Origin: Welwitschia mirabilis
Taxonomy: Eukaryota
Reading direction: 5' to 3'
Length of the DNA stretch: 38,147 bases
Assembly: GCA_051453625.1 (NCBI GenBank)
Contig: JBOZIK010000001.1
Coordinates: forward strand, 8,934,853 to 8,972,999
Made by a program: the position numbers and the translations under genes. The notes under the pieces are model-generated. The model saw nothing but the letters and a program-made list of their open reading frames with translations. It was not told where the DNA came from and did not search any database. Each line of letters opens with the position of its first letter. Position 1 is the stretch's first letter. Positions 541 through 26,709 of the stretch are shown here, piece after piece.

Positions 541-1489
541 TCTAAAACCTTTACCCAGTGGACTAAAATATATCATTTTTTTGTGATGATCAAAACACAA
601 CTTTGATAATAAATAAGAATCTTTTCCCTTAATAAGTGTTCATTTTAATTTTACTTTTAAAATCTAAGGTTAATGCGTTTTCTTAATTCCACAAAGATTT
701 AATAGCCATTTCTATCTCTATTATTTAATATAAAATCTACCTTGAGGATAATGTAAAAACTATTAAGGAATCCCAATGTAGACTAAACCCAGCCCTTAAA
801 CAAGTTATAAAAGATGAAATCATTAAATTAATGAATGCTAGAATTATTTATGCAATAGCTAATAATGAGTAGGTTAGCCCTTTGACAGTAGTGCCTAAGA
901 AAGATGGGAAGTAGAGAATGTGTATTAATTTTAAAAAATCTAAATGAAGTAATCAAGAAAGACCATTGTCTTTACCTTTCCTGGACCAAATACTTGATAA
1001 AATCTAAGGACATGCTTTTTATTACTTTCTTGATGGGTATAATAGTTACAATCAGGTTTGTATTGCTAGTGAGGATCAGCTTTAAACTCCTTTTACTTCA
1101 TCTTTTGGAACTTTTACTTGTAGATACATGTCTTTTAGACTTTGCAATACTCTTGGTACTTTTTAATGTGTAATGATGGGTATCTTTTTCAATATGCTGA
1201 AGGATTTAATTGAAAATTTTATGGATGACTTCTCAATGTATAGTGAAAACTTTGAATAAGTCTTAAAAAGTTAGAGAAAGTCTTTGATAAATGCATTAAG
1301 AGTGGCAAACATTTAAGTTAGAAAAAGATTTTATTTTTAGTTGAGAATGGAATTGTATTATGTCTAATAAAGGAATTAGGATGAACTCTGAAAAAGTAAG
1401 TATCATTAAAAACCTAACTTCTCCAACAAATGTAAAATAAGTTCGATCTTTCCTTGGTTATTGTGGTTTTTTATCATCATTTTATTTAA
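541..1489 (+). pseudogene. Reverse transcriptase remnant of Athila-type pol
   Basis: Manual translation across frameshifts: LKPLPSGLKY; QCRLNPALKQVIKDEIIKL; VSPLTVVPKKDGK*RMCINF; LNEVIKKDH; FLDGYNSYNQ; ENFMDDFS (catalytic xMDD at about 1218-1229); VRSFLG. Confidence 0.92.
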
Positions 1490-1681: not shown

Positions 1682-1995
1682 GTGCTTGGACAAAAATATA
1701 AAAATGATTTTAAGGTTATATCTTATCATAGTAAAACTTTGTCTAAAGCTCAAATGATTTACACTATTACTAAGAAAGAAATGCTAGGAATAATCTTTTA
1801 CCTTGATACACTTAGACACTATCCTTTAGGCTTCCATATAAATGTTTATACCGATCATCCAGCAATTAGATTCCTCATGACCAAGAAAGATTCTAGTATT
1901 AGACTCATTAGATGAATCCTCCTTATGCAAGAATTTAATTTGATCATCATTGATAAAGCAGGGGAGCATAATAGCATAGTAAACCATTTGTTACA
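1682..1995 (+). pseudogene. RNase H remnant of Athila-type pol
   Basis: LGQK...VISYHSKTLSKAQMIYTITKKEMLGIIF...VYTDHPAIRFLMTKKDSSIRLIR*ILLMQEFNLIIIDKAGEHN, matching the Athila RH consensus (YTTTEKELLAVVF / TDHAALKYL / RLIRWILLLQEFD). Confidence 0.92.
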
Positions 1996-2079: not shown

Positions 2080-3349
2080 TCTTTGGTATGCTGATATAGT
2101 TAATTATCTTGTTACCATAAAAACACCACAATATTGAACTCATAGTTAAAGAAAATCCTTTTTTCATAGAATAGGTAATTATGAATAGATAGAGTCACAT
2201 CTTTACGGTAGGTGCAAAGACCAAATCATGAGAAAATGTGTACCAAATGGGAAAAATCAGATATTCTTCATCTTTGTTATGATGATGTTTGTGAAGGTCA
2301 TTTTAGTAGATAGAAAACATCTATGAAAATCCTTCACTTTGATTTTTATTAACCTAGTTTTTTTTATTTTGTTAGAATGTGTGATGCTTATTAACATTAT
2401 AGTAGCCTTATTCATTCTTAAGAGATGTCTTTTAAACCTTTTTTTGAATGTAAACCCTTTTATTGTTGGGGAACTGATTTTAGATGCCCTATTAAACCAC
2501 TTTCTAATGGTAAGAACTACATCTCATGGCTGTTGACTATGTTACTAAATGGGTTGAAGCTATTCCTACTTCTATGAATGATGTCTGAATTGTTTGTACT
2601 TTTCTTAGAACTCATATTTTTCAATGTTTTGGTTTTTCTAGAATTATCATTAGTGATCAATAAACTCATTTTATTAACTAACTTTTTAGGAAACTTCTTT
2701 TATCCATTGGAATTGAACATAGAGTAGCCTATGCTTATCATCCATAAACTAATAGTTAAGCTGAAAAAGGCAAATATAAAAATGAAGAAAATGTTACAAA
2801 CCTTGTCTCTGTTAATAAGAAATCTTAGGCTTCTAAATTTAACAATGTTCTTTAGGCTTATCATACTACTTGGCATAATTTCCTTGGCTTTTCACCTTAT
2901 GAAATTCTATATGGAAAAGTTTATATTTTATCTGTTGATGTGTGTTATAACTTTTATTGTTTTTCTCATCAACTTAATCTTGTAGACCTTTATGAGAATC
3001 TTAAACATAGATTAGTCCAACTTGATCACTTAGATGAAAAACATACTTATGCTATACATCGTCCATTCATAAAGCCCAATCTAAGTCCAAACATGATAGA
3101 AAGTTACTTCATAAAAAGTTTGAATCAATTTAACTTGTTCTTTTATATAATACTAAAGTGCCTCTTTTACATAACAAGTTGATCTCTAAATGGTTAGGTA
3201 CTTATCTTATAGAGAAAGTACATTCTAATAGTTCTATTGAGATTTCCGACTTAAAAGCAAAGGAGATTCAGAAAGTTAATGGACAAAGGTTAAACATACA
3301 TGAAAAACCTTTCGATGCAACCTTGAACATATTAGAAGTAGTATTTTAG
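2080..3349 (+). pseudogene. Integrase remnant of Athila-type pol
   Basis: WYADIVNYLV; zinc-finger remnant CYDDVCEGHFS; PFYCWGTDF; VDYVTKWVEAIPT; IIISDQ*THF; AYHP*TNS; C-terminal KLISKWLGTYLI...KVNGQRL (GPY/F module). Confidence 0.92.
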
Positions 3350-3861
3350 AGGTTTTTCTCAATGAAAAGGGCTTCCACCCTATCATTATCTGAATTCTCT
3401 CTTAGCTTATTCCTTTGATGGATATTATGATGTCACTTGATCATCTTTTANNNNNNNNNNNNNNNNNNNNNNNNNNNNNNNNNNNNNNNNNNNNNNNNNN
3501 NNNNNNNNNNNNNNNNNNNNNNNNNNNNNNNNNNNNNNNNNNNNNNNNNNGCTTCCACCCTATCATTATCTGAATTCTCTCTTAGCTTATTCCGTTGATG
3601 GATATTATGATGTCACTTGATCATCTTTTAAACTTGACTTATGTGTTTACTTTATGAAGTTTCCATGACTAGTATTCATACTTGAGCATTTTTATAGTGA
3701 TAAGATTAGATTCACCCAATCTTAAGATATTCACATATCTATAAATTTCATTTTGAAGGAAGATTCCTTGGTTTTTATGATTTTTTCAATGATGTGGATT
3801 TTTGGTTATTTAAGTGTGTTTCTTTTTATCTTTTATCTGACTTATTTACCTNNNNNNNNNN

Positions 3862-3894
<33 letters not shown>

Positions 3895-3904
3895 GGGGGG
3901 GAGA

Positions 3905-4718
3905 AATAATGATCATGATCTATTATATCTATGCTAAAACACATGGTTACCATGATGTCTTACCACACTAGGGTAACTTTTTCCAGAAGGAACATTTGGC
4001 AGCATTGGTAGCTGTGGGAACTCCACTGGGGGATCAGTTGACCATGCTTCACAGGTCCTTACTTCTCTGATTGTGGTTACACTCCCCTTAACATGGAAAG
4101 TAGTAATAAAACTTTGAGACTATAGGATCAGTAGTGTTCCTAGTNNNNNNNNNNNNNNNNNNNNNNNNNNNNNNNNNNNNNNNNNNNNNNNNNNNNNNNN
4201 NNNNNNNNNNNNNNNNNNNNNNNNNNNNNNNNNNNNNNNNNNNNNNNNNNNNNNNNNNNNNNNNNNNNNNNNNNNNNNNNNNNNNNNNNNNNNNNNNNNN
4301 NNNNNNNNNNNNNNNNNNNNNNNNNNNNNNNNNNNNNNNNNNNNNNNNNNNNNNNNNNNNNNNNNNNNNNNNNNNNNNNNNNNNNNNNNNNNNNNNNNNN
4401 NNNNNNNNNNNNNNNNNNNNNNNCCCCCCCCCCCCCCCCCCCCCGTATATCTCACTTATTCATCTTTGTCTTTTTGAGTATGTGATCATGTGAGAATTAT
4501 TCATGTGAAAAAAAAAAGAAAAAAAGGAAAAAAAAAAAAAACAATGATCACAATCTATTATATTTGTGCTAAAATACATGGTCACCATAATGTCCTACCT
4601 TTAGGGTCAGTTGGTTATGCTTTTAGAGGTCCTTGCTTCTCTAATTGTAGTTGTACTCCCCTCATCATGAAAAGTAGTAATATAACTTTAAGGCTATGGA
4701 ATTAATGGTGTTCCTAGT
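3905..4718 (+). repeat. Two diverged direct copies of a ~180-240 bp non-coding unit (3905-4144 and 4541-4718) in the Athila 3' UTR
   Basis: Both start AATGATCA..ATCTATTATAT..TGCTAAAA.ACATGGT.ACCAT and end GTGTTCCTAGT. The second copy lacks the central block. Confidence 0.85.
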
Positions 4719-5610
4719 ATCATCAAAGGCATTGATTATTTTTTAGACTCTTAGTATTCCCATAATGATCATTTCACTTTTGAGGATTCCGATGTGTTTT
4801 AAGGTATAAGTAGGTGAGTTCATTTTGGAGTAGTTTTTTTATCTTATCATTCATTGTTCAAAGCATTTGATCTTTGGTTTCATCATAATCACTACTTTAT
4901 CGAATGAAACTTTATGGAGTTAATACATTTTGTCATGCGTTTTTACTCAGGTGGCTTTATGATGTCTTTCAAGTGAGTTTGCTAAGTTCGAATTTAGGAC
5001 AGGTAAGTTATCTTGTTAATGTTTCTTGTGTCTATTTTCATTCTGCTTTTCTTTAGTTCTTTACCTTATTATGTCAAAGTCATTTCCATACTTTTTCATC
5101 ATTATCTAGGACCTTATCATTTAGTAGTTTTCCTGTTGTTATTTATGTCAATTCTTTTAATAACAAATTGATTTTCTTTTAGCATTTTAATTAGACAATC
5201 ACATCTTATTCTTAATGATTTTTATAAGTTTCCTTTGAGTCTTTTAGAGTTCTAAATGTTTTTAGGATTATTTTTTAGTTTAGGCATGTTTGTTTAGTTT
5301 TCTTTGACAACTTTCGTCCTACTTAGTGCATTTTTCATCACCCTATCTTTCAATTCTTTTACATTTTCCTACTCATCTTCATTCGTTATAACTCTTTACC
5401 ATTCCCAATTTTTTGAGCTTTCTAATACATTCTGATACCTTCACGATGATATCTAAGCCTAACTTATTTAGCTGACATCTCTAGCTTTTTGAAATTGTTC
5501 AAAGTCCTGCATCCACCTGGTAATCCAGATGACACTGGGAAATGACATTAGGCTATTGTCTGGTCGATGTAATAAGACAATAGTGTAATAAAACCATGGG
5601 TTGATTTTTT

Positions 5611-5779
5611 TCCTTCATTTTTCTTCCATTCTCTATCATTTCCACCCATTCTCAAGATAACAATGTCCCTAGTCCTTGCCAACGTGCTGGAATTCCTTCA
5701 TTTTTCTTCCATTCTCTATCATTTCCATTCATTCTCATAAGACAACAATGCCCCTAGTCCCTGCCAACGTGATGGAATT
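5611..5779 (+). repeat. Tandem duplication, unit about 83 bp
   Basis: TCCTTCATTTTTCTTCCATTCTCTATCATTTCCA...CCTAGTCC.TGCCAACGTG.TGGAATT starts at both 5611 and 5694. Confidence 0.9.
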
Positions 5780-7100: not shown

Positions 7101-8120
7101 CTTCTCTCAGCCATGTACAGATACTTCAGCATACCAAAGTCTATAAGCAAGCAGTAATTCATGCATATATAGACTTTAATTCATTACCTGTAGGACATGG
7201 ACATCCAAATACCAGAAGAAGCAGAAAGATCTTAAGTTCAAAGACTTGTGGTTGGTGCTTCTATAAAGCATATTCAAGCCCTCCTGGCCTAGACTACCAA
7301 GACCATCAAAGGTGTTATAAACCGAGGCATCTTTACATTAAAGCAAAGGATTCAAACAGTTAAGAGCAGAGTATAACACACTGAGGGGCTACTAGTGGGT
7401 GTGCGACAGCACATTTTATGGATAGAGCATGGTGCAATGGTAGACCTCCCAGAGATTGTTCAAGTATAGGGAGACAAGATAGTGCAGATGATCACGACTC
7501 CACTTGACCACTGTTTTCCTATAGATCTTGAGAATCCTCCTTCTTTTCTTCTACATCTGAGTCTATTGCCCATCAAGAATTCATCATGACTAGACAAGGA
7601 GAGTGATTTCTTATGCTACATTTTATGTCTTTTCCTCTATGGATTCTATAAAGCTTATGATATATATACAGAAACATTATTTTTTAATAGTAGTATGGTG
7701 TAGATTTTCATTTTTACATATCATTTTTGATACTTTATGATGAGGATTGTTTATGTTATACATGATTATCTTTTATCTATTGTACATTCCAGTGGACGGC
7801 TCTTAGTTACTAGTGTATTTAATGTTTATCTTTCTAAAAACTTTTTCACAGGCTTCTACTTTTTAAGAACAATTTTTGAGTTTATCATCCCCTTCATTAT
7901 CTAGACAATGCCCAGGATGACAGTATGACCAATTGCATGACACAGATGAAATGTTCAACTATCTGTTTTTGACTTTCTTGTCTTACATTCTCAGATTCCT
8001 AAAAATCTTTCTGAGTTTATTTCACATTTCTCTAGTTGATTTATTATTAGTCAATTTGGCTTGCAATTATAGTTGTTTGTCTAGTTTTGTTAGGGAGTGA
8101 CAAGGTTAAGTGATAGGTTG

Positions 8121-10204
8121 TGTTGCACTACTAAATTGCATGTATTTGATAGGATATTTTGAGTAGTTTTGCAAGATATCAAATAGGTTTATGCTGAGTT
8201 TCAACAATAATGGTGAGCTAAGGTAAATGTCACAAAAACATGCAATCTTCATTACATTTAACAGCATTCGAAGCAATTTACACTACTTTCTATCTAAAAC
8301 AATAGTTCTACAATCAAAAAGGCTAATACGACATAAGAGATACTTTATAAAAGTCGATTGTTCACCTAATCATCTAGATGATTGTACGAACAACATAAAT
8401 ACTAAGTTAAGAAGGATGCTTACTAGATCAATTTGCTAGCTGATGTGGAACTCATATAATATGGCATCGTCTCTTGTGATGTTCCAATGATCAGTAGAAT
8501 GATACTTGAAATAAATGCTTCATCAAACTTTACCAAACACTGGCCATATGACTTTCATCTTCTGGCATAATTGTTAGGGTTGTTAGCATGTCTATTTGTA
8601 TTTTCTTATTTTAGAGTCTTTTTGTAATAAATACCTTCTTTTTCCTCGACTCCATTTTTATCTTCCTTGAAATTGAAAATTCTTATGACAGGAGATTGAA
8701 GGGTAGGATATCCATTCATTGTTTTTGCAGAAAGACATATTTTTGATGTTAGACTATGGATTGTTCATTAAGGTGCTACTATGTATAACATGGATGTTGG
8801 TTTACTTTTAATCGAAACTCTATTTTCCTTTTCATATCTTTTATTTTATGCATCTTCCTTATGGTTTACATTGTTTTTGATTCCATGATAGCTTCTTTAC
8901 TTTTAATCGAAACTCTATTTTCCTTTTCANNNNNNNNNNNNNNNNNNNNNNNNNNNNNNNNNNNNNNNNNNNNNNNNNNNNNNNNNNNNNNNNNNNNNNN
9001 NNNNNNNNNNNNNNNNNNNNNNNNNNNNNNNNNNNNNNNNNNNNNNNNNNNNNNNNNNNNNNNNNNNNNNNNNNNNNNNNNNNNNNNNNNNNNNNNNNNN
9101 NNNNNNNNNNNNNNNNNNNNNNNNNNNNNNNNNNNNNNNNNNNNNNNNNNNNNNNNNNNNNNNNNNNNNNNNNNNNNNNNNNNNNNNNNNNNNNNNNNNN
9201 NNNNNNNNNNNNNNNNNNNNNNNNNNNNNNNNNNNNNNNNNNNNNNNNNNNNNNNNNNNNNNNNNNNNNNNNNNNNNNNNNNNNNNNNNNNNNNNNNNNN
9301 NNNNNNNNNNNNNNNNNNNNNNNNNNNNNNNNNNNNNNNNNNNNNNNNNNNNNNNNNNNNNNNNNNNNNNNNNNNNNNNNNNNNNNNNNNNNNNNNNNNN
9401 NNNNNNNNNNNNNNNNNNNNNNNNNNNNNNNNNNNNNNNNNNNNNNNNNNNNNNNNNNNNNNNNNNNNNNNNNNNNNNNNNNNNNNNNNNNNNNNNNNNN
9501 NNNNNNNNNNNNNNNNNNNNNNNNNNNNNNNNNNNNNNNNNNNNNNNNNNNNNNNNNNNNNNNNNNNNNNNNNNNNNNNNNNNNNNNNNNNNNNNNNNNN
9601 NNNNNNNNNNNNNNNNNNNNNNNNNNNNNNNNNNNNNNNNNNNNNNNNNNNNNNNNNNNNNNNNNNNNNNTTTTCGTATCTTTTATTATATGCATCTCCC
9701 TTATGGTTTACATTTCCTCTAATTCTATGACAACTTCTTTAGTGATATAGATTATAAAGGCAACCTTTATTAAGATTAACATTATTAGCTTAAGTGCATT
9801 GCATTTCATTTCCTAGATTAACTTTACATTATTTTTATATTTTGTTTGACATACCTGATATCTTATGTTGATCTTGATCTGATGATGCTTTTCTTGATTG
9901 ATCTAGGTTATATAAGGCTGATCTCTGTGATAGGTTGATTTGGTAATTAGATAGAATTTGCATTTAGAATAAGACTTGCATTTCATTTACATAGTTTATT
10001 CATTTGTATTGTTATTTCTGCCTTGTTATTGTGTTCTACTTTAAGGTTACATAGTGTTTTGTTTTTGAAATCAAGTCTCTTTCTTCTTACCTATGCCTTC
10101 AACGAGATTATGACAATTAGATCACTTTCATGTATATTAGTGTGTTGTGTTATGCAAAATCTATTTATATGTGTGATTTACAAGATTCACTTGAGAACGT
10201 AACA
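8121..10204 (+). mobile_element. Putative 3' LTR of the Athila element, containing a gap and a tandem repeat
   Basis: Preceded by the Athila-like pre-PPT TTGTTAGGGAGTGACAAGGTTAAGTGATAGG. Starts TGTTG, has a TATA-like AATAAATAC near 8626, and ends ...GATTCACTTGAGAACGTAACA. No partner LTR in the window confirms the ends. Confidence 0.55.
8801..9713 (+). repeat. ~95-bp tandem repeat spanning an assembly gap
   Basis: TTTACTTTTAATCGAAACTCTATTTTCCTTTTCA occurs at 8801 and 8896. The unit resumes after the gap at 9671 (TTTTCGTATCTTTTATTATATGCATCTCCCTTATGGTTTACATT). Confidence 0.75.
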
Positions 10205-11117
10205 TTTGCACAAATGCTCACCATAACACTCATCTCGGATCCCAGGCATGCAAGATTCAAAATTGGTTTTAGACAAATTCTAGAAAGATTTCAAATAGAT
10301 TCAGAATGATAGAAGGTTTTTCAAGTTTTAATAGTGATCTCAGGAAGAGTTTTAAAAGTTCCTATGTAGAAATGCCATCTCTAGCAATTAGATAAAACAG
10401 GACCTAGGTTAGGATGTGCATTATGGTTTCAAAAAATTCTCAAGCATTCATAGAAATCTTGCAAAGTGATTGACATGATAAGATCATAGATAAACATAAG
10501 AGAAATAAAAAACAGCAGTACACTCCAAACCAATTAAATCATAAAAACAATTGTTTAGTTTTTAGCATTTATAATGGCAAATTCACTAAGTAGAAAATTA
10601 AAACTCAAGTTATAAATGTAAGAGATGAAAGAAAGCATGCAAATTAAATGAGTTCAATTTTAGGGNNNNNNNNNNNNNNNNNNNNNNNNNNNNNNNNNNN
10701 NNNNNNNNNNNNNNNNNNNNNNNNNNNNNNNNNNNNNNNNNNNNNNNNNNNNNNNNNNNNNNNNNTAAGATATTAAATAAATCATGCAAATTTAATTAGT
10801 TAAATTTTAGGGGTTTTTTATTTTTTTTTCCCTTTTTTACCTTTACTTGTAACCTACAAAAACTTGTTATAACTGCAACACAAATCAAGTTAGAGCAGAA
10901 AACTAAAGCAAATTTAAAACTAGACTAATTTGGATATCACTAGAAATGACTAGTACCAATCATTGGAAAAAAGAGAAAACAAATAAAATAAAAAAATACA
11001 TGCCCAGTTTGGGTATCACTAGGGTTAATCAATATCCACCACTTAAAAAAAATCAAAACTAAAAAGCTTACTAGAAAGTAAAATTTANNNNNNNNNNNAG
11101 CAACTACCATGTCATTA

Positions 11118-12495
11118 TTCCTAATAATGGTATCAAATTCTATTCATTTAAGTACAATAAATCAGATATAAACTCACTTAATACTTAGTACCATTCTCTC
11201 TATAAGATAATCAGGGTAGGTTTTTAGGATTTACACAACTCTTTCTTAATTACAAGTTATAGTTAAAGAAAAGGAAAACAAAGAGAGTTGAGAATATTGG
11301 TTTAAAACTTTGTTGGAAAAGTAAGGAAGCAAACAAGCTCAAGTTTTCACTCGATTTATCCACTAGCAATTCTTCACTCTGATAATATCTTGTACCTTCC
11401 TGAAACATACTTCAAATTATCAAGTAATGATAGCTCAGTTCATGATGACATAATCTCATTCACCATATGAGAATTGGTGAATTCAAATGTCACTTAGTCC
11501 TTCATAACCCTTAAATAAGCATGGAAAGTAAGGACTTAATGTACTTAAAATCCATCAAATAGAAGAGACATAGACTAATTAACTAATGAACTAATTTAGT
11601 TAACAAAAGAACTTGATATCATAGATTTACTAAGCATTAAAGTTATGAAGCTATTTATGACTTAAAATCAAAATGAACATCTAGTTACATTAAATCAAAA
11701 GAGATACATTACATCAAAGAAAGAAGAAGGAAGCTGGAAATGGCTCTTCAAGCTATCCTTAAAATAAGCTCACTCCCTAAAAAGAGAACTTAGAAGGCCA
11801 TGTTGACTTGATACTCCAAAAGTTCTATTACTTCACCAAAATGAAGGATGGCATACATGAGGGCTCAAGGCCTTTTTATAAGCAAGTATGAGGTGAGGGT
11901 TGGTTACAAGCCTTTAGCTTATAGAACTAGGTAAGTAGTTATAAAATATAGCATGTAGCATTAGGTAAAATCTTTATCATCTTGCATTAGGTAGAAAACA
12001 TTATGATGAGCCCAACAACTGGCTTCTAGATGTTGCTGTTTTTATCAACTAATAATGTTGTCATATGTCTTCATCATCATTCTACTTAGCACTATCACAT
12101 GCCACTGTTATGTGTCGTCATCATCATGACCATGTGTCATAAGACATACTAGTTATTTCTGATGTGAAATCTGATTAGACCCATAACTGCATTCAGTTGA
12201 ATTTTGCATGAAAAGTCAAGAATGGGAATTTTAAAGTTTTCTGCTCTGAAAGACCAATGGTGTTAGTGACCTAGATGGAGGCGCTAGCGTTTTAAGCTCA
12301 ATGATCATCACGTTTTAGCATGTCCTTCAAAATGAGATAAATGTCTTGAAAATGTTATAGGAAGATGATAAGTTTATTAAAATATTAAAAATAGTAGAAG
12401 ACATAATTCCATGATAAATTGGTTATATTAATGTTTTTTGTTAAACTAAATTAATCAAATAACTTGATTAGAATGTTAATTTTTACATGTTAACA
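11118..12495 (-). mobile_element. Second Athila-type element on the minus strand: 5' LTR (about 11141-12495) and decayed tRNA-Asp PBS (11118-11135); 5' UTR extends toward about 10205
   Basis: The minus strand starts TGTTAACATG at 12495, with TATAAAAAGG near 11871-11880. TTCCTAATAATGGTATCA differs from the Athila PBS complement TCCCCGGCAACGGCGCCA only by C>T and G>A transitions. Confidence 0.55.
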
Positions 12496-13729
12496 GAAAA
12501 CCATACAATAGAGTAAGTAATTGGATCTTTGCAATGCAATTTGAGATAATAAGAATAATTTAACCAAAAAAAAAAAATTTCACAACATCAACACACTAAA
12601 ATTAGAAAAAGATATGTTATTAAAAGAAATAGTGTCAATAAAATGGTTTTGTATTTTCTGAAATACTACAAAGAATAAAGTAGGAAAGTATAACCTATCT
12701 TTTAAATTCTTTGTAGATTTGTAAAGATAGGATTTTACTAGTGTTGTAAGTATAGAGCGTTTGTGTTCCAGATTGCAAGGTTAATAGTGGAGGAAAGTAT
12801 GTTTTGATTCAAAGCAGGATGAGGTAGGTTGTATTATTAAATAGTTCATTAGAATGAGTTGTTTTACACTTAGATGATGTTGAATAATTATTTCAATATG
12901 AGTTGTTCTACACATTGATGATGCCTCTGTGAGTTATTAACCAAGTGAATTTATGTGGCCCTATCAATAAATATATATGATATTCTTGGAATACTTTATG
13001 CTTATTTTCTATATAGAATATGTAACGTAACAACTAACTAATAATAAAACATTTAGCTAAAATTAAATTTAATATAAATTATAAAAATGATTATTTAAAA
13101 TCTTTACCCAATTAAATTATCTAACACTAAATACTTTGAGAAAGCTAAAGTGCTAAATGCAATTAGCTAGAGGTCTTCTAATGCAGAAAGTAAAAATGAA
13201 CTTAATATAGCTCCAATGTGCAATGGACAATGATCAGAAAATAACACTCAATTGTATTTAAAGGAATTAAGTAACAAGAACAGGTAATAAAAGAAACAAA
13301 TAAAATTGCATTTATTAATCACAAGTAAGATGAGTCCATCAAGGCCATCTCATATATGAAGGCATACTCAATGCTACTTCCTTGGGTGTGGTGTATGCTA
13401 GAAGTAGAAAAAGTAAATTCTATAAGAGTATATGAAAGAGTTAAGTGATTTATTCTAGTTTGAGGCTACTTTTATAGAAAACAAATTCATGTGTATGCAT
13501 TAATACATATTAGTCTCTGCAACTTAACCTAACAAAATAAGACAATGACTTTAGTAGGTGTGTTAACATGCTTAGCAAATATAGCAAATATAGCAAATAC
13601 AAAGAGAACATCACAAGGACTTGAGTATTTAATATATAAATATTGTATAAGACCTCATTATTCTATGATGTCATATGCTTTAATATTTCTATATCACATA
13701 TATGTGATAGTTCATTTGTCATGATTTTT

Positions 13730-14824: not shown

Positions 14825-15980
14825 TGTAATATGTTTTTTTTTTTTTTTTCAACCATATCATGTAGGGGCACTCACCCTTAGGCAAGGAGAGGGCGGCAAC
14901 ATAGAAAAGTAGGTGCATGCCTACTAAATCGAAAGGAGAGCATAATGAGGAGTGCAAAAAAGAATAATAGTGCCTTAGAAACAAGGAATCACATGAGGAG
15001 TGAGTGAGAAGGGCACCAAATCAAAGTAGTTCGAGGAAAAATAAACACAACACAGGTAGTGCAGGCTCACAGAGTACAAGGGAGTGGCGCTTTGGAGGAG
15101 AGCACATGCAGTAAATAATGTGCAAGAGAAGAACACTGGAAGAAAAAAAGGATATTCTATGATTCACAATGGAAGATATAGTTCATCAAAAATTTGCTAG
15201 GTTAAATCATGAGTTTTAAGAATCATCCTTTCAATAAGCCTATGTTGGCCAAAGGATGTTTTTCCTAATATTTTCCTCAATTAAATGGTTCATTTCATTT
15301 TAAAATCAATGTACAAACATAAAGGATTAAATCCTCCTTCCACTTCTTATACTCTTTGAATAGAGACCAATTGTATTTCATTGAGAATAACCAAAGAAAT
15401 TTTATTATTTTAGAGAGATGAATAACTTTATTATTTTTTTTTTATTGAACCTTTCATGTTTTGAAACCTCCACCTAAAGGGTGATTTTTTCTATCTCTTT
15501 TATTCTATTACCTATCACTTAGAATTTGTTTGTTCATTTTAAATAATAAGGAATTTTCATTTAATTTTTTTCTTTTTAATTTGGTAATCACTTATGTGCA
15601 TGTGTGTGTGTGCGCGTGTGTGTGTGTGTGTGTGTGTGAAAATACTTTAGCATTGTCTAATTCCCAACGTCTTTAATTTATTCGATTAAAATTAAGACCA
15701 TGGATCTTTCTTTGAGTTCATTTTCAGATGAAACATTTACAAGATTATTTTAGGTATCATTCCTAATATCAAAGAAAAACACAAATGAATATAGGATGGC
15801 TGAGACCTTCTTTATTTTATTTTACCATAATGATAAGATCATGAACTATTAAATTCATAACATTAGCCACTAGTTTTACTCTTGAGTCTTACCTATGACT
15901 ATTAAACTACCTTTACATTCAAATCTATCTTCCAAAATCAAGATAAATCAGGTTGTGGAGGGGGAAAAATCTCGTAAATA
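14825..15980 (+). repeat. 5' LTR of the Tat/Ogre element
   Basis: TGTAATATG...GGGGAAAAATCTCGTAAATA (terminal CA mutated to TA). Colinear with 25510-26709. Confidence 0.93.
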
Positions 15981-19559: not shown

Positions 19560-20990
19560 ATGAAGCAATAGAATATTGCAATGTATGACTTCCTAATGGA
19601 CTTTACTAGTTGAGAGAAATCTTTTAAAATCAATGAACAACTACCATAACAAACTAAATTTGAGCTCACAAATGTGTTATCTTTCAATAGGGACATCTTC
19701 ATCTCACATTACAAAGATATGTTGAGTATCGACAAATCAATATTCATACATAATATCATCCTAAAGCTAAATTCAATCCCAGTGAGACTGAATATTATAA
19801 ATCTTAATCCTTGTCTTGCATTAGTGGTAAAACAAGGCCTAGACCATCTTTTAACTGCTAGTTTCATCCGACTGCTAGACTATTCAGATTGGCTATCAAA
19901 CATGATGGTCATTCTAAAGAAGAACGATCAGATCAGGATCTGTATTAATTACCATAACCTAAACAAGGTTATCTTGAAGGATGATTATCCTTTATTAAAC
20001 ATCGACATCCTAGTAGACAAAGCTGCTAGTTATGATCTCTTATTATTCATGGATGGTTATTCAGGTTATAATTACATATTTATCATTCTCACGGATTAGC
20101 AAAAATAACTTTTACAATGCCATGGGTCTCTTCTATTACGTCAGGATGCCTTTTGGATTAAAGAATACTAGTATAACATACTAGCATGTAATGACACACA
20201 TCTTTCATAACATGATCCATCGAAACATAGAAGATTACATGGATGATGTTGTAGAGAAGTCAAAGATAGTTACTAATCATCTTAATGAGTTAAATCAACT
20301 CTTCATGCAAGTAAGGCAATATAATATATGCCTAAATCCAAAGAAATGCATGCTTGGTGTGCCATTAGGTAAACTCTTAAGCTTGTGGTATCAAACAGGG
20401 GAATAGAAATTAACCCAAACAAGATCAAGGTAGTCACTAACATGCCACCACCATGGAATTTAAAAGAACTGCAAAGTCTACAACGTAGGCTGCAGAAAAT
20501 ATGTTAGTTATCTCAACCTTAACAGATTGATGTAAGCCATTCATGCACTTGCTTAAAAAAAATAGCAAGTTCAAATGGAACGAGAATCACTAAAAGGCCT
20601 TTAAGAGGAATAAAGAGTATTTAATGTCTACTCCTATTTTGAGTCTGCCTAGGTCAGATTGATTATTTAATCTTTATCTTGCATATACCTTGTCATCGAT
20701 TAGCATGATAATCTTTTAAATAGATAAGCTTCATCGGGATCACCCAAACTACTACATCAATAGGACACTACACCAATACAAGAAGAACTAGATTGACATG
20801 AAAAAGACATGTTTGCGTATAGTATGCACTTCGCAAAAATTTTATTATTACATGATGACGAACAAAAACTTGTACAGCCTAAACCTACTCAAACATTAGA
20901 CTAAATGGATGTTAATCCTTAATGAATTTGACTTGGAATTTCAATCATAAAAATCAGTCAAAGAGAAGTGCAAAGCCAAATAAATGGTAG
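19560..20990 (+). pseudogene. RT and RNase H remnants of the Tat/Ogre element
   Basis: YSDWLSNMMVILKKNDQIRICINYHNLNKVILKDDYPLLNIDILVD; FMDGYSGYN; MPFGLKN; EDYMDDVVEKSK; LNPKKC; KWMLILNEFDL. Confidence 0.95.
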
Positions 20991-21078
20991 GTCTCCCAAC
21001 TGAAACTAAAGATAAAGCCCCTAGTGAGTTTGAACAATTCCCTAACAAAGAAATTCACATCATCAAAATGAAAAAGAA

Positions 21079-21450
21079 TTGGGATGCATTGATGTTCCTT
21101 AATGGCATATTCAATCGAAATGGTGGATTTACAAGAGTAGTCTTTTTTCTTAACAATAAAACTAGTCTGCCATTCTCTTTTAAGTTAACTTTTCATTGTA
21201 CAAACAACATTGTCCAATAGGAGGCTTTAATAAGAGAAATCATACTAACCATTTAAGTGGGTTTCAGTAAATTACACATATTCGATGACTCATAACTAGT
21301 CGGCAATCAAGTCTTAGGCAAGTATGAAGCTAAATCAGGAATCTTAGATGCATATCTCTAAAAAGTAAGAAAGCTTCTTACATCAAGTCATGTGAAATTC
21401 TAGTTGTCCCTAGAAATAAAAACCAATTTGTGAACTATCTTGCAAACTTC
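21079..21450 (+). pseudogene. Additional (archaeal-like) RNase H domain, aRH
   Basis: WDALMFLNG...FSFKLTFHCTNNIVQ*EALI...LHIFDDS*LVGNQV.GKYEAK...VPRNKNQFVNYLAN matches the Tat aRH consensus (CTNNxAEYEA, GDSxLVxNQ, PRxxNxxADxLA). Confidence 0.9.
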
Positions 21451-21599
21451 ATGCAAACATGTTTTAAAGATCCATCTCTTAAAGAGTACATCACATGCAT
21501 GGACATTAGTCAAAATTTCCTTGATGCATACATGATAATTGCTTATTTAGAGCTATTACAAGATGAAGTAATCAATTAATAAAAGATCCCAAAGCAAAT

Positions 21600-22745
21600 A
21601 ACGAGTGGTATAACACTTTTGTGGACTACCTCACCGAGCAAAAGCGACTAGGAAATCTTTCGTCACTACAAAAGCAAAACTTTAGGGATCAAGCCATGCG
21701 CTTCAACCTAATCCAAAATCAATTGTATAAAACATTAAATAAAGGTATCTTACTAAGATGCCTAAAGTCAACTAAAGCTGCTTATGTCTTAAAACAGACC
21801 CATGCTAGACTAGGTGGGTCCTATCAGGGGGTAAAATAACTATTGGGTCATGTAATAAGGTCTAGTTATTTCTAAAAATTAATGAGTGATGACTACTTTA
21901 AGATCATGAGAACATGTCATACCTATCAAATATTTTCATTAAGAATATGTCAATTGCTTATTGAACTCTTTCCTTTCAATTCACTTTATATTTCTAGGAA
22001 GTATGGTATGGATTTGATCAGTCATATCACGCATACCTCATCGGGACAACATGCCTTCATCGTTACTATGATAGAATACTTTTCCAAATGGGTTAAAACA
22101 ATCCCATATGGTAAACAATGTCAAAGAAAATCCAAAATTTCATTTTTAATCATATAATCACTAGATTTGGTATGCACTATGTCATTGTCACCGATAATAG
22201 TCCATAGTTCAGATCATCAAAATTAAGGAATTTCTTGAATAAATTCAAGACAAAACACTCATTTTTTACTCCGTGTTATCCTCAAGCAAATGGACAAGTT
22301 GAGGAAATTAATAAAATCATAATCAACTGCTTTAAGAAGTTGTTGCAAAGGAATACAAAGTCGTGATGTGAAAAACTACCTTTAGTGTTATGGACTTACC
22401 ATACTATAGTTAAAACGGCTACAGGAATGACCCCGTTTCAACTAGTCTATGGCACCAAAGTGATTTTGCCTATCTAGATTCAAATTCCCATGCTAAAAAC
22501 GCTAGTTAAAGATCTAGAATTGTTTGATGCTAAAAAGGAAATTGGACTTGCACAACCTGAAACTTTTGATAAAAAGTGGGTAAAAGCCTTACAACAANNN
22601 NNNNNNNATCAATATGAGAAAAATTATACTGAAGTAGAAAAGGCATGTTTGAGTTTAGTTTTTGCTTCACAAAAGTTTTGTCATTATATTAGTTAGGACC
22701 ATTTATCATTTCACAGAAGTTCAATAAGGGAACATACAAACTAAG
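21600..22745 (+). pseudogene. Integrase remnant of the Tat/Ogre element
   Basis: LLRCL...THARLGGSYQG; CHTYQ; YGMDLI; IEYFSKWV; IVTDNS; TPCYPQANGQVE; TATGMTPFQLVYG; GPFIISQKFNKGTYKL. Confidence 0.92.
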
Positions 22746-25306
22746 AAGTTTAAATTGTGTTAAAGAAAGTGAACTGATAAATTCCCTATATCTTTGATCT
22801 TATTATCATTGAAATAAAATTCAAAACACATGTCATTTTCATTTTACACTATAATTTAGTCATTTCAACATTTTTATTAGCTAGTTTGCATAGTTTCCCC
22901 TTGTATTTATTTTCTTAATGAAATATTTCATGTATATATACATCAATTTTTGTGCAAGATAATGTTGGCCTTTTTCACACATCACACAAACTTCATGTTC
23001 TATTTTCCATGTTTGAGTTTTATAAACTATAGCCGAACATGTTTATCAAATCGTAGAAGCGATGCATGCTGCTAACCTTCATGCAAAACACGGCTGAGGA
23101 CTTATGCCAGGCCCACATGGTACGGGTCACTTCATCCCCTATCACTTCAATGTCTCTGTCATTAACATTTCACTCCATGAGGCTCCATCTATGGAATAGG
23201 ACAACAATAACATATACCACATTGACCCATGTTATGATAGTCTTGATCCTTTCCCTATTATAATTCACCCCCTTACACGAGCCCTTTTATTTTACCTACT
23301 CATATATCACCATTATCGTTTTACTAAATATTAGTGGTATATCTCCCTTCTGCCATGCATCTCATCACATCCTCTATGAATCATCATTACCTCATTTTAT
23401 TTCACTCATACCTGCCATGTTATCCTATTGGCCATATCTGCATCACATTTTCCATGGCTCTCACTTTCATCTTGTTTTTAATTTTTTAAAAAAAGAAGAA
23501 AAATAGAAAAACAAAATTCAATCAAAATCACTATTAAAAACCCGCAAGGGCACATGTTTGCATCTTTCCTAGCATTTGAGACTTTATAATAATCATAGCA
23601 TATTATAAGCCCGTCATGTTCATCATTTAGTTTTCATTATTCACTCACAGTTTCCATCTCTTTATAGCCTAATCTTATTTTACCTTGCATGAACCATTAC
23701 CTTAAATTCATCTACTTCCTTTTATTGCACAACGTTTAGATACATCTTTATAATGAGTTAACTTCCAAGTGGCTAAATCTTTATCTTATAAAGAAGTGCA
23801 TTTTGAGTGACTTCATTGAGGTTCTTAATTTAAATGCTAAGAAAAACTTAGGGTCAATGAATAATAGTTAAGACTATGTTAATGATGACCGATATGATCT
23901 TGGCATGATAAAAGCAATTGAGTAGGAAGATCATCTTAATTGAAAGATGCATCCTTCCTTTGCCTTTACCTAAATGACTCTTCGGTAAGATTTCTTTGTT
24001 AGAGTCACTTGTTTGTTTAATTGGTCTATCTATTTGGTCCTATGTTAAATCACATTCCAGTTTTCATCAAGGTAGTTTTTTACTGTTTGGCACTCACAGT
24101 GGTAAGATTAGATTTCACCTAATCTGAAGACATTCCCTTGTTTATAACCCTTGATATCTTATGTTGTTCTATCTTGGTATCGATTATGTCAATTCTAATA
24201 CATACCTTCAACTGTGAGACTTACAATTTACCATCTCAATGATCAAGCAATGTTAAAACAAAAAAAGGAGAATCCAAGTTAATTCATTAATACTCAAAAA
24301 AAAAGGGGAAAAAAAGGAGATCATGATGTTCTACCACAAGCATCCTAGGGTAAATATTCCTAAGAGGGGCCTTTCACAGTGTCATGTGGGAGCTATGGAA
24401 ACTCCACTAGGTTGTTAGTTGGTCACGATCTAGCTTCAGCTTGCAGATCCTTACGCTATTGTTAGTGGTTGCACTCCCCTTACCATGGTAAATGGTGTTT
24501 CCTAAGCACCCCATTGACCTGGTTTTTCATAACTCTGAAGCTATGACTTTGCAAGCATTTAGAACATATTTGTTATTGGATAGTAAGTTAGTCAGGTTTC
24601 ACTTACTGTTACAGCTGATGAGTGAACTGAGTTATAGTCTAGCCATTATATTAGTACTTCGTAGTATAACCATAAGCATTATCATAATCACTGCCCTTAT
24701 TGCGTGATACTCTGTGGTATTTAGCATCAAATCACATGTTAATGATATTAAACAATGTTATGATTTATACCAATAGACTTTGCTAGGCTGGCATTTAGAG
24801 GTGTGGAAATCAATCTTCTTTATGCCTCTCTTTGTCCATTCTCACCTAGTCTTTTTGCGGTATTCGTGACTAATTACCTTAAAGTATTTTTTTGTATTTA
24901 CTCTTACTTACTCAAGACTAATCACATTTCTCAGTTATCTTTTGGCATTCATCTCCTTCCACCACCTTGCTTTATTACCTTGTGATGTCACAATCATCTA
25001 TCTTCCATCATCATCACCTCTCGTACCCTTTTTCTTGTCCCCCTTTTCTTTACTTACCACTCTCTCACACTCTAATCCATCCTTATCCATTTTCATAATT
25101 ATAGTCAAATGTCAGTTATCCTTCCCATTTTCCATTTTCTTCATTTTTCCCCTTTGACGTTGCTAAGTTACATCATCACCTAGATCCCAGTGCTTTAACA
25201 TTTGTCCCTTGAGCATTTGCATCCATTTTGTTTTAAAAAAAAGAAGAAAAGAAGAAAAGAAAATAAGAGAAAAATTTTAAAAAATTAAATGAGAGAGAAA
25301 ATTATT

Positions 25307-25309
<3 letters not shown>

Positions 25310-25364
<55 letters not shown>
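25310..25364. repeat. (GA)n microsatellite
   Basis: Direct reading. Other SSRs: (GA)n about 3862-3892 and 37683-37741, (GT)n about 15601-15638 and 26310-26352, (CT)n about 26125-26154. Confidence 0.95.
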
Positions 25365-25367
<3 letters not shown>

Positions 25368-25495
25368 AGAAGAATGAGAAAAGAAAAAATTTTAAAAAAC
25401 CAAAAAAATTTATCATGGTGCTCAAACATATAAGAACTCCAAAAGGGAGTGTGTGATTAGTTTCATGGATTTCATTCCACTCACCCCCACACTAC

Positions 25496-25509
25496 AAAAG
25501 GGGGACAAG
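25496..25509 (+). promoter_or_regulatory. Polypurine tract
   Basis: AAAAGGGGGACAAG lies immediately before the TG of the 3' LTR. Confidence 0.88.
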
Positions 25510-26122
25510 TGTAATATGTTATTATTTTTATCGTATCACATAGGGGCACTCACTCCTAGGTAAGGAGAGGGCGACAATACAGAAAAGCAGGTGCATGTCC
25601 ATAGAATCAAAAAGAGAGCAAAATGAGAAGCATAAAAAGGCAAAACAATGCCTTAAAATAGGGAATTGTATGAGGAGCAAGGGAGAAGGGCATCAAATCA
25701 AAGCAGCCCCAAAAAAAAAAAAAAAAAAAAAATTAACACAAGCAGCGAAGGCTCAGAGAGCAAAATAGAGCAATGATTTAGAGGAGAGCACACACAGTGG
25801 ATGATGTACAGGAGGAGGACACAGCAGGAAAAAAAAAAGGATATTCCATGACTTGTAACAGAAGATTTAGTTCATCAAAATTTTGCCAGGTTTGAATCAT
25901 GAATTTTAATAATCATCCTCTCGATAAGTCTATGTTGGCCAAAGGACATTTTCCCTAATATTTTCCTCAATTAAACAATTCATTTCATTTTAAAATCAGC
26001 GTGCGAATATAGAGGATTGAGTCCTCCTTCCACTCCTTTTACTCGTCGAATAGAGACCAGCTGTATTTCATTGAGAATGGCCAAAGAAATTTTATTCTTT
26101 TAGAGAGATGAATAGCTTTCAT

Positions 26123-26158
<36 letters not shown>

Positions 26159-26308
26159 CGTTGAATCCTTATGTTTTAGAACCTCCATCTAAAGGGTCAT
26201 TTTTACTTTCTCTTGCTTTTATTCTACTACCTATCACTTGTAATTTATTTTTTCATTTGAAATAATAAGAAAATTTGGCTTAAAAAAGAAATTTTTTTCG
26301 GTAGTTGC

Positions 26309-26354
<46 letters not shown>

Positions 26355-26709
26355 TTATGTTCATATGCAAATACTTTAGAGTTTTCCTGCTCCCAACATC
26401 TTTAATTTATTAAATTTAAATTAAGATTGTGGATTTTTACTTAAGTTAATTTTCAGATAAAACATTTATAAGATTGTTTTGGGTACCATCCCTAATATGA
26501 AAGGAAAATGCCAATGAATATAGGATTGTTCAGACCTTCTTTATTTTATTTTACCATAATGATAAGACCATGAACTATTGAGTTCATAACATTAGCCACT
26601 AGTTTTTCTCTTGAGTCTCAGCTATGACTATTAAAGCACCTTTACGTTCAAATCTGTCTTCCAATATCAAGATAAATTAGGTTATGAGGGGGGAAAAATC
26701 TAGTAAACA
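25510..26709 (+). repeat. 3' LTR of the Tat/Ogre element
   Basis: TGTAATATG...GGGAAAAATCTAGTAAACA, followed by the TSD copy TCTAG. Confidence 0.93.

Follow-up and report, generated by a model that had tools for sequence, protein, structure and literature searches.

How two LTR retrotransposons of different Ty3/gypsy lineages came to share sequence behind their pol genes is the question raised by the window analyzed here, a 38,147-nt stretch of Welwitschia mirabilis DNA. Its scaffold is of draft quality, containing 13 N gaps and showing duplication at gap edges. Classification of plant LTR retrotransposons follows reverse transcriptase (RT) phylogeny and takes each element to have a single history. 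The initial annotation described a non-coding 3'-UTR module common to both elements and offered two explanations: a conserved structured cis-acting RNA or exchange of the module by recombination.

Results

Domain architecture and lineage of the two elements

The following parts of the first (e1) and second (e2) element were located outside the region of interest or at its upstream border.

678..1482, + strand: decayed RT of e1 (tblastn with Tat/OTA proteins: P0061 49-238 at 678-1247, P0093 226-267 at 1357-1482)
1682..1963, + strand: canonical RNase H (RH) of e1, leading straight into the integrase N-terminus without archaeal-type RNase H (aRH) (RH HMM, E 2e-9 at 1682-1912)
2242..3038, + strand: integrase remnants of e1 (P0093 683-775 and 782-952, P0073 1574-1669; rve HMM pieces at 2422-2660)
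3062..3346, + strand: pol C-terminus of e1, with the shared tract from about 3100-3140 (HMM E 2.9e-6 on ORF 3134-3346; P0061 990-1062 at 3062-3274)
14825..15980, + strand: 5' LTR of e2, preceded by CCTAG at 14820-14824 (blastn 14823-15978 versus 25508-26707, 77.6% over 1211; termini read)
19656..20501, + strand: RT of e2 (Pfam RVT_1, E 1e-4 on 20185-20403; P0061 35-317)
20510..21576, + strand: degenerate RH, then aRH of e2 (P0061 321-605 and P0068 348-634 across RH and aRH)
21666..22597, + strand: integrase of e2 (P0061 692-965; rve HMM, E 9e-9)
22693..22815, + strand: pol C-terminus of Tat type belonging to e2 itself, as far behind the integrase as expected (HMM E 2.2e-4 at 22693-22794; P0073 1747-1783 at 22696-22806; frame reading)
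25494..25509, + strand: polypurine tract of e2, before the 3' LTR (direct reading)
25510..26709, + strand: 3' LTR of e2, followed by TCTAG at 26710-26714 (blastn; termini read)

In a passage of Neumann et al. (2019; PMC6317226), Tat and Athila are set apart by the aRH domain. The RH of e1 (P0145 RH 578-661 versus e1 1712-1963: 37%, E 1e-12) was not followed by such a domain: P0111 836-950, which extends from the RH end to the pre-integrase region, aligned without a break to e1 1916-2242, the RH-to-zinc-finger spacing was about 103 aa, versus 168-276 aa in seven aRH-bearing references, and the aRH HMM gave no match in e1. In e2, colinear matches to the same HMM lay within 20984-21576, the best of them at E 0.0017, and Tat proteins spanned RH and aRH at 20510-21382.

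An RT tree of 123 rows joined e1 to P0043 and P0111 with 98% support, in a part of the tree where 0/19 rows bear aRH, and placed e2 on the side holding 27/27 aRH rows; support for the e1/e2 split was 97% in this quick tree search, in which both window rows sat on long branches (1.05 and 1.32). Domain architecture and this tree, built without named Athila references, assign e1 to a predicted Athila type; the aRH between RH and integrase and the side of the tree occupied by e2 likewise predict a Tat type. Decay of e2 blurs the distinction between Ogre, which has an extra 5' ORF and an intron, and Retand. The earlier statement that the carriers belong to different Ty3/gypsy lineages was thus upheld, both by aRH content and by RT classification. 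RT and integrase of e1 and e2 were not alignable at nucleotide level by blastn. A phmmer search with the e2 RT returned 9377 relatives at E<=0.001; word-index protein searches with the e2 RT ORF and the e1 RH ORF gave no match, and a search of viral contigs with the Athila-like alignment gave 0 matches.

Athila elements have a PBS complementary to tRNA-Asp and typical LTR junction motifs; the 5' end, LTRs and PBS of e1 lie outside the window, and no 3' LTR of e1 was identified within it. The LTR pair of e2 showed 82% identity in aligned columns, with a transition:transversion ratio (ts:tv) of 150:55, and its target-site duplication (CCTAG/TCTAG) matched at 4/5 bases. Because of this duplication and the absence of an N gap from 22608 to 29368, e2 can be regarded as one integration unit, with its own pol C-terminus, the shared tract, the polypurine tract and the 3' LTR on one contig. 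Reading the sequence behind its 5' LTR gave no assignment of a PBS to a tRNA. An antisense Transposase_28 ORF (PF04195), as in Retand, was not detected by Pfam searches on 150 + 64 ORFs.

Extent of the shared tract

Parts of the shared tract and of its surroundings are listed below.

3696..3744, + strand: shared island 1 of e1, with a small AAGAUU/AAUCUU hairpin (match to 24098-24147)
3862..3906, + strand: purine tract of e1 adjoining module copy a (45-nt A/G run, after a 10-N gap)
3904..4144, + strand: core module copy a of e1, the module of the initial annotation (blastn 3951-4099 versus 24322-24491; 78% identity in aligned columns)
4507..4541, + strand: purine tract of e1 adjoining module copy b (35-nt A/G run)
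4539..4718, + strand: core module copy b of e1 (85% identical to 3904-3964, 80% to 4031-4144)
4882..5083, + strand: weak colinear islands of e1 downstream of copy b (4882-4917 with 24681-24717, 4957-4997 with 24758-24798, 5061-5083 with 24975-24997)
22816..23690, + strand: e2-specific spacer of low copy number, with no e1 counterpart (z -0.1 versus e1 2300-3100; depth)
23720..23925, + strand: second, e1-like, decayed pol C-terminus of e2, putative head of a captured tract (tblastx, HMM, nucleotide identity)
24098..24147, + strand: shared island 1 of e2 (blastn to e1 3696-3744; depth peak 24048-24137 in run X1)
24296..24320, + strand: purine tract of e2 adjoining the core module (A/G run; contigs diverge here)
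24322..24590, + strand: core module of e2, partner of the e1 module (blastn; no other island in the 2.7-kb stretch is as well kept)
24681..24857, + strand: further shared or conserved island of e2 (weak colinear matches; depth peak 24768-24857)

Similarity between e1 and e2 was far above chance. The Smith-Waterman local score was 91. Dinucleotide shuffles (n = 300) scored 24.6 ± 3.4 (maximum 50), and a real-sequence control of 70 window segments did not exceed 35. By blastn, e1 3951-4099 matched e2 24322-24491 (68% over 170 columns, E 3e-8) and e1 3696-3744 matched e2 24098-24147 (82% over 50, E 2e-7; region z 10.8). These results confirmed that the two regions are alike at the positions originally reported, with an alignment well above the level of shuffled controls that had been named as grounds for dropping the claim. 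Seven of the eight colinear blocks reported at the outset lie in or beside the two blastn matches, the last (ATAA.CT.TGA..CTAT) falling outside the match itself; the first block, directly after the stop codon, was at chance level (score 18 versus 19.5 ± 2.8, reached by 227/300 shuffles).

The span 3360..4144, originally given as the limit of sharing, proved too narrow at both ends. The tract opens in the last ~60 pol codons (window positions ~3100 in e1 and ~23690 in e2), with similarity reaching ~200 nt upstream into pol (local nucleotide score z 5.5), and colinear islands extend it to ~5080 in e1 and ~24860 in e2. The downstream extension (4720-5100 versus 24600-25000) scored 45 versus 24.2 ± 3.3 (z 6.2; reached by 0/300 shuffles). 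Upstream, the similarity stops sharply: control segments 2300-3100 of e1 and 22820-23680 of e2 showed none (z -0.1). Nor is the tract purely non-coding, since it begins in pol and the Tat-type element carries a vestigial second pol C-terminus. By tblastx, e1 3167-3265 matched e2 23746-23844 (48% aa, E 2e-5); by HMM alone, this second C-terminus (23740-23868) was weak (E 0.31). The module itself gave no coding reading, with stops or frame loss in all six frames of its three copies and no Pfam match.

N gaps break the e1 region at 3451-3550, 3852-3861 and 4145-4423. The first has an 80-nt repeat at its edges (3371-3450 = 3551-3630, 98.75%) and therefore looks like an assembly artefact; the path from island 1 to the core module crosses the 10-N gap. 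The third module copy (e1 copy b, 4539-4718) sits behind an N gap and is 80-85% like 3904-4144; compared with copy a, it showed 82% identity in aligned columns (ts:tv 29:3) and lacked ~62 nt at 3965-4030. Copy b may have arisen by tandem duplication, or scaffolding may have attached another member of the family here.

Unequal divergence and a breakpoint in e2

RT and integrase matches between e1 and e2 showed 44-51% nucleotide identity, with third positions at 27-41% (random 28%) and transversions exceeding transitions (ts:tv 62:102 and 22:53, respectively). The pol-end match had 60% nucleotide identity, 52% at third positions and a ts:tv of 30:10, and the core module reached 78% in aligned columns, versus 82% for the LTR pair of e2. 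LTRs of one element are identical at insertion. By these measures, RT and integrase are saturated between e1 and e2, and the shared tract differs about as much as e2's own LTRs do. Moreover, a pol C-terminus occurs twice in e2: the native one at 22693-22815 and, heading the shared tract, the decayed, e1-like one at 23720-23870. The alignments thus indicate the two marks of a mosaic, unequal divergence from one partner and a definable breakpoint, with breakpoint and identity estimates that are noisy owing to the great age of both copies (LTR identity ~78-82%).

Four contigs from the runs of two organisms, 15-19% diverged from the window, bridged the junction at 23688. Summed depth just upstream of it was 196-637, where depth is the sum over contigs of all copies and not a copy number. 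This depth pointed to dozens of copies, and the junction is probably not private to the copy in the window.

We consider it fairly probable that a Tat-type lineage captured an Athila-type 3' tail by recombination, and that the best-kept islands of this tail are probably cis-acting signals. Of the two original explanations, exchange by recombination is thereby favored, on account of the two pol C-termini, the discordant divergence and the sharp boundary. The tract would be native to e1, where it comprises the end of the pol gene and then the post-pol region. With a complete pol C-terminus of its own, e2 would have gained the ~1.2-kb tract (~23690-24860), ~0.9 kb further on, from an e1-like donor; as the tract begins in the donor's last ~60 pol codons, the second pol C-terminus, now redundant and decayed, would have come with it. 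A template switch in reverse transcription of co-packaged RNAs would be the likeliest route, after which the recombinant would have spread as a family.

Alternatively, the arrangement could be an accident private to this copy, either an e1-like insertion in the tail of e2 after integration that was later mostly deleted, or a contig misjoin. The gaps and duplicated gap edges of the draft scaffold would allow for this, as would an RNase-H-like scrap beside the 10-N gap at 22598-22607 and the age of e2, which is sufficient for nested insertions. However, the stretch from e2's own pol C-terminus through its 3' LTR lies on one contig without N, diverged contigs from two organisms' runs cross 23688, and nothing like a leftover LTR from a nested element was observed, the module being unlike the e2 LTR ends and the downstream part of e1 unlike the e2 LTR. 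Such an accident is considered unlikely.

Conservation of short islands in genomic and RNA reads

Two DNA runs and two RNA runs, the latter chosen by species label, were compared with the e2 tract. Summed depth swung between 490-1330 and 8300-39500 in adjacent 90-nt bins, and RNA reads peaked in the same bins. All four runs had their highest summed depth in the core (24318-24497), at 15495-39546 and 31911-37453 for the DNA runs; island 24768-24857 formed another peak (21442 and 26796), again with RNA reads. In the e2 spacer 22816-23690, summed depth was 160-1900, versus 7500-14000 beyond 23688. Sequences were alike within the tract only at 24098-24147, 24228-24587 and 24768-24857, with spacers that drift or change length. 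Conservation of the islands, strongest for 24318-24587, extended over thousands of genomic copy-equivalents and to transcripts.

Among the RNA reads, 187/190 and 109/113 fitted only in part, and their loose-end consensus at the core edges was homologous to e1's own flanks. Contigs diverged at the e2 purine tract, where the loose-end consensus ahead of 24320-24322 was A-rich and of low agreement. In the RNA runs, reads neither started nor ended at the module and showed no joints there, and none ended at the purine tract.

Spacers between the islands of e1 and e2 are not alignable, unlike what a simple recent wholesale transfer would leave; this counts against capture, which would then require more than one event or else a long period of divergence since the transfer, during which selection kept the islands.

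One observation still speaks for the cis-acting role suggested by the initial annotation: contigs and RNA reads showed islands kept far better than spacers. A structured RNA was not supported. Being the best-kept parts across genome copies and transcripts, the islands probably serve the abundant donor family as signals in cis. We would guess that the core consists of the purine tract and a ~90-270-nt conserved recognition site on genomic RNA or cDNA; conceivable, conjectural roles are in packaging or dimer linkage, or in priming the plus strand internally. A more far-reaching proposal, in which the islands (the purine tract with the core at 24322-24590, and its neighbours) form a portable cis-acting cassette of the abundant Athila-type family, for instance with one of these roles, kept by the Tat lineage to ride in or recombine with Athila particles, is decidedly doubtful. 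If true, it would imply selected modular exchange between clades and not a neutral accident.

Structured RNA and other identities of the module

Descent of an ancient, structured cis-acting RNA, inherited vertically and selected in both clades since their common ancestor, would also account for islands kept far better than spacers in DNA contigs and RNA reads. A small island 1 hairpin occurs in both elements (fold z -1.4 and -1.1), and there is a precedent in the Tat post-pol hairpin (model R1) with its compensatory changes. Against this, fold z-scores of the module were -0.36 and -0.50, and the consensus fold of its three decayed copies was weak (-8 kcal/mol), with five pairs with double changes, too few to weigh and not usable as covariation. 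Rfam gave 0 matches at E<=1 over the window, and scans of small regions returned weak, chance-level rows. Searches with blastn (word 7) and nhmmer did not find the module in 81 Tat-like loci (646 kb) or 37 Athila-like loci (123 kb); the best match in these 118 loci covered 21 nt on the opposite strand (E 0.003). The 24-27-nt core pattern, including the 24-nt core motif, was found 0 times in viral contigs and 0 times in metagenome contigs. Furthermore, deep descent predicts neither a vestigial coding piece nor divergence of a recent type. The structured-RNA option of the initial annotation is therefore regarded as very improbable.

Three further identities were tried and rejected. A fragment of the e2 LTR was not supported (z -1.1 to 1.8; no similarity to the e2 LTR ends). 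For a tRNA-like or SINE sequence, ARAGORN gave 0 matches and Rfam no tRNA or SINE row, and homology continued on both sides of the core. The Tat post-pol hairpin model R1 had no match at 4040-4130, 4610-4700 or 24420-24540, its best window matches (E 1.2-9) lying elsewhere.

Independent insertion of a separate small mobile element (SINE or MITE) into both retrotransposons, which the initial annotation had named with its own target-site duplications as a competing explanation, is most improbable: core depth far above that of the flanks, an A-rich tract at the core 5' edge and what we take to be a loose resemblance of the core to tRNA-gene promoter boxes speak for it, but homology is colinear over ~1.2 kb including the pol end, with islands on both sides of the core, no tRNA, Rfam match, terminal repeats or duplicated flanks were seen, and RNA loose ends at the core edges are homologous to e1 flanks.

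Discussion

An Athila-type tail with a vestigial pol end on a Tat-type family would mean that 3' regions can cross clade borders, and such regions can mislead lineage calls made from non-coding parts. The short islands are good candidates for cis-acting signals of these very large elements. The literature searched did not describe the hairpin motif or sharing of the e1/e2 type; an earlier description may exist in Macas et al. (2009) or in Macas and Neumann (2007).

The position of the islands recalls the Tat/Ogre 3' UTR and the Retand POL-3'LTR region, which the relevant passages (Macas et al., 2009, cited in PMC7004042; Vicient, 2025, PMC11963269) describe as long and variable, with length-variable spacers and microsatellites. 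Unlike these regions, the module showed no tandem array or antisense Transposase_28 ORF, and the passages in PMC7004042 and PMC11963269 on Tat/Ogre and Retand regions do not describe sharing between clades.

Hairpin R1, in Tat-type loci of other plants, is a 55-95-nt structure directly behind pol and better kept than pol; its compensatory changes include 10 pairs with double changes, and 90.3% of cells were paired, versus 30-54% when the alignment was slid. The core resembles R1 in lying behind pol, in being better kept than pol (R1 in families with 64-72% pol identity) and in sharing a short pyrimidine-rich word. It differs in location (~400-600 nt behind the pol stop, versus 10-60 nt for R1), and the covariance model of R1 was unmatched in the window (E>=1.2).

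Similarly, Sirevirus (Ty1/copia) motifs, in the part of Bousios et al. (2010; PMC2829016) that describes them, are short non-coding islands near purine tracts, kept across families. Sireviruses belong to a different superfamily, and, unlike their motifs, the present islands were not found in 118 loci of other plants.

The closest known systems are mosaic LTR retrotransposons. Sections of the review by Drost and Sanchez (2019; PMC6894440) report such mosaics, formed by recombination in reverse transcription, in barley/wheat, Arabidopsis Athila, rice CRR and soybean; recombination between families is documented there, with very distant partners rare and limited to a handful of studies. Discordant divergence, a sharp breakpoint, a probably multi-copy recombinant and partners in one genome are features that the present case has in common with the mosaics of these sections (PMC6894440). 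It differs from them in that the partners belong to different OTA clades, with RT third positions saturated, and in the redundant second pol C-terminus. The event proposed here is therefore of a known kind, retrotransposon recombination, with unusually distant partners.

Structure and lineage of the two elements

Both the Athila-type element 1 (e1) and the Tat-type element 2 (e2) were heavily decayed, and Pfam models recovered only scraps of them (RVT_1, E 1e-4; RT_RNaseH, E 3e-4). An exhaustive phmmer search with the 149-aa reverse transcriptase (RT) reading frame of e2 yielded 9377 relatives. RVT_3, the archaeal-type RNase H (aRH) domain, was matched in 13 of the 21 long relatives scanned, and those that also carried an integrase showed the order RVT_1, RT_RNaseH, RVT_3, integrase. 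Domains were mapped by aligning the relatives' proteins and small HMMs to the window; the HMM of the pol C-terminus was built from 28 proteins of the OTA superclade, which includes Athila and Tat.

Features of e1 and e2 (window positions)
678-1482, e1 RT
1682-1963, e1 canonical RNase H (RH; HMM E 2e-9)
2242-3038, e1 integrase; RH runs uninterrupted into its N-terminus
3134-3346, e1 pol C-terminus (HMM E 2.9e-6), continuous with the e1 integrase
14825-15980 and 25510-26709, e2 LTRs (77.6% identity by blastn, 82% in aligned columns)
19656-20501, e2 RT
20510-21576, e2 degenerate RH and aRH
21666-22597, e2 integrase
22693-22815, e2 own pol C-terminus, at a distance from integrase as in Tat references (HMM E 2.2e-4)
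23720-23870, e2 second, decayed pol C-terminus (HMM weak, E 0.31; 48% identity to the e1 C-terminus, tblastx E 2e-5)
25494-25509, e2 polypurine tract
CCTAG and TCTAG, pentamers flanking e2

Element 2 was a complete integration unit. Presence of aRH, which angiosperm Ogre and Retand elements carry between RH and integrase, has been used as the criterion separating Tat from Athila (Neumann et al., 2019, PMC6317226). Between RH and the zinc finger lay approximately 103 aa in e1, whereas seven references with an aRH had 168-276 aa. A quick tree search on 123 RT rows, with long branches for both window rows, separated e1 and e2 by a 97% split. Element 1 grouped with the reference polyproteins P0043 and P0111 (98%) on a side of 19 rows, none of them aRH-bearing, while e2 fell on the side of 104 rows that held all 27 aRH-bearing rows. 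In this comparison of domain architecture and RT sequence, the aRH criterion, domain layout and RT split therefore supported the initial annotation of e1 as Athila and e2 as Tat.

Directly 3' of a 10-N gap (22598-22607) in e2, a 25-aa RNase-H-like scrap (22616-22690, +; HMM E 9e-6) was 60-64% identical to the RH of several relatives. It occupied a position where pol residues are expected, in a frame different from those of the e2 integrase and pol C-terminus; a minor insertion or an assembly error could account for it. Downstream of the retrotransposons, an open reading frame piece (34208-34450, +) matched serine carboxypeptidase S28 (Pfam PF05577, E 4e-17) and is probably a host-gene exon. 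An inverted repeat (30815-30940, +; 37974-38100, -) of 127 nt and 93% identity, its arms 7 kb apart, could represent the ends of another mobile element; it enclosed a weak copia-type gag fragment (36421-36624, -).

Extent of the similarity between e1 and e2

The window consists of draft scaffold sequence from a plant, with 33% G+C and 13 N runs. In a blastn self-comparison, the bodies of the two retrotransposons resembled each other at nucleotide level only in the module match already noted from the sequence (3951-4099 versus 24322-24491; 68% over 170 columns, E 3e-8). A finer search added island 1 (3696-3744 versus 24098-24147; 82% over 50, E 2e-7). Local alignment of the post-pol regions scored 91, as compared to 24.6 ± 3.4 (maximum 50) in 300 dinucleotide shuffles; 70 real segments from the same window scored no higher than 35. 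The colinear similarity is therefore real. The block proposed directly 3' of the stop codon was at chance level (18 versus 19.5 ± 2.8, equalled in 227 of 300 shuffles). The boundaries originally assigned to the similarity were too narrow: on the upstream side it reached inside pol (z 5.5), and on the downstream side it took in 4720-5100 versus 24600-25000 (z 6.2). Upstream of ~3100 / ~23690, no similarity between e1 and e2 was found (z -0.1).

Beyond an N gap, e1 contained a third copy of the core module (4539-4718; 80-85% identity to 3904-4144). Each of the three copies was immediately preceded by a purine run (3862-3906, 4507-4541, and 24296-24320). The two e1 copies were 82% identical, with nearly all differences transitions (29:3), and 4539-4718 lacked 62 nt present in 3904-4144. 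Either the element tail underwent tandem duplication, or a 279-N gap links two members of the family. The pyrimidine-rich region 3' of the e1 module contained a tandem duplication of ~85 nt (5610-5694 / 5693-5779; 91% identity).

Origin of the shared tract

Frame reading revealed two pol C-termini in e2. The description of the module as purely non-coding 3'-UTR was not supported, as the tract begins inside pol and includes a vestigial pol C-terminus in e2. The core module itself had no conserved reading frame. In the RT and integrase matches between e1 and e2, nucleotide identity was 44-51%, third positions were 27-41% identical (random segments, 28%), and transversions exceeded transitions (ts:tv 62:102 and 22:53). 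The pol-end match showed 60% identity, 52% at third positions, and a prevalence of transitions (30:10). This shift in the type of divergence coincided with the start of the similarity (~3100 / 23690). Identity of the core module (78% in aligned columns) was close to that of the e2 LTR pair (82%), whose members were identical at the time of integration. Saturated divergence of RT and integrase, as opposed to the milder, transition-rich, LTR-like divergence of the tract, indicates that the common ancestor of the tract is far more recent than that of the remaining e1 and e2 sequence. An Athila-type element would have been the donor and a Tat-type element the recipient, because the tract is a functional pol continuation in e1 and a redundant appendix in e2.

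The module was found neither in 81 Tat-like loci (646 kb), retrieved with an alignment of Tat-type pol proteins, nor in 37 Athila-like loci (123 kb) of plant DNA inside prokaryote assemblies, retrieved with an Athila-like alignment. In this sample it was therefore not general to either clade, which argues against deep vertical conservation. A 24-nt core motif was absent from viral and metagenome contigs. The 37 Athila-like contigs, filed as bacterial genomes or MAGs (Modestobacter, Blastococcus, Streptomyces, Geminicoccus, and others), code for Ty3/gypsy polyproteins of plant type and look like eukaryotic contamination.

The interval 22608-29368 contained no N, so that the e2 own pol end, tract, polypurine tract and 3' LTR are on one contig. 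Two DNA runs, under two organism labels, supplied contigs and two RNA runs supplied reads for alignment to 22608-25290 at 80% likeness. Contigs differing by 15-19% from the window bridged the junction at 23688 (four records: 3, 4, 10, and 11). Summed depth was 196-637 just upstream of the junction (single contigs, 3-7) and 7500-14000 past it. These depths are taken to reflect a recombinant family with dozens of copies and a donor family of much greater abundance, summed contig depth being a poor measure of copy number. Elsewhere, near-identical short duplicates at N-gap edges (3371-3450 / 3551-3630, 98.75%; 8801-8834 / 8896-8929, 100%; 10619-10665 / 10766-10812, 85%) are likely overlapping contig ends, which would make those gaps assembly artefacts rather than missing sequence.

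Conserved islands within the tract

Depth in DNA run X1 alternated along successive 90-nt bins of the tract (750, 8800, 1300, 9200, 15500, 39500, 8300, 1100, 3200, 21400, and 490), with a similar pattern in run X4. RNA reads of both libraries shared these peak bins, with 21 and 19 at 24408-24497 and 0-6 in most others. Nearly all fitted only partially (187/190 and 109/113), and the consensus of their overhanging ends resembled e1 flanks. Islands are therefore retained among otherwise diverged, transcribed copies, which speaks for some cis-acting function, none in particular.

The proposal of a structured RNA was not supported: core-module folds did not exceed shuffles in stability (z -0.36 and -0.50), and no Rfam family was found window-wide at E ≤ 1, scans of small regions giving chance-level rows only. 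The consensus fold of the three copies was weak, and no tRNA was found. A small hairpin in island 1, present in both elements, reached z values of only -1.1 to -1.4. The core module was also considered as a piece of the e2 LTR and showed no similarity to the LTR ends. In the two RNA runs, no reads started or ended at the purine tract. Our preferred guess is that the islands may be a donor-family recognition site on genomic RNA or cDNA, with packaging, dimer linkage, or internal plus-strand priming beside the purine tract as candidate roles.

Comparison with known systems

Tat-type elements from other plants carried a post-pol hairpin that was better kept than pol and showed compensatory changes. 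Among 34 complete-pol loci, pairs with 64-72% identical pol often shared a block of 50-130 nt at 80-90%, located 10-145 nt 3' of pol. Eighteen such blocks (alignment A6) aligned as a nested hairpin of 55-95 nt, 10-60 nt past the pol stop. Pairing occurred in 90.3% of cells, versus 30-54% with the partner slid, and double-sided changes affected 10 pairs (shuffles 4.7 ± 1.4, reached in 0 of 500).

Examples of the hairpin (retrotransposon loci from other sources)
L026:8946-9030
L035:7263-7347
L046:4708-4792
L029:8703-8784
L033:6197-6253
L034:5618-5675

Its covariance model gave 21 matches in 91 loci and none at the window core module; no Rfam family corresponded to it, and a literature search by sequence words found no mention of it. 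This hairpin shows that short structured signals 3' of pol exist in the Tat-type clade; the window module is not recognisable as a member of this hairpin type.

Mosaic LTR retrotransposons arising by recombination during reverse transcription are established, and a review cites only a handful of studies of such events between distant families (PMC6894440). The present case, whose type of sharing may have been described before in older papers on Athila, Tat, or Ogre structure, is a further member of this kind, with unusually distant partners and a second pol end persisting as a vestige.
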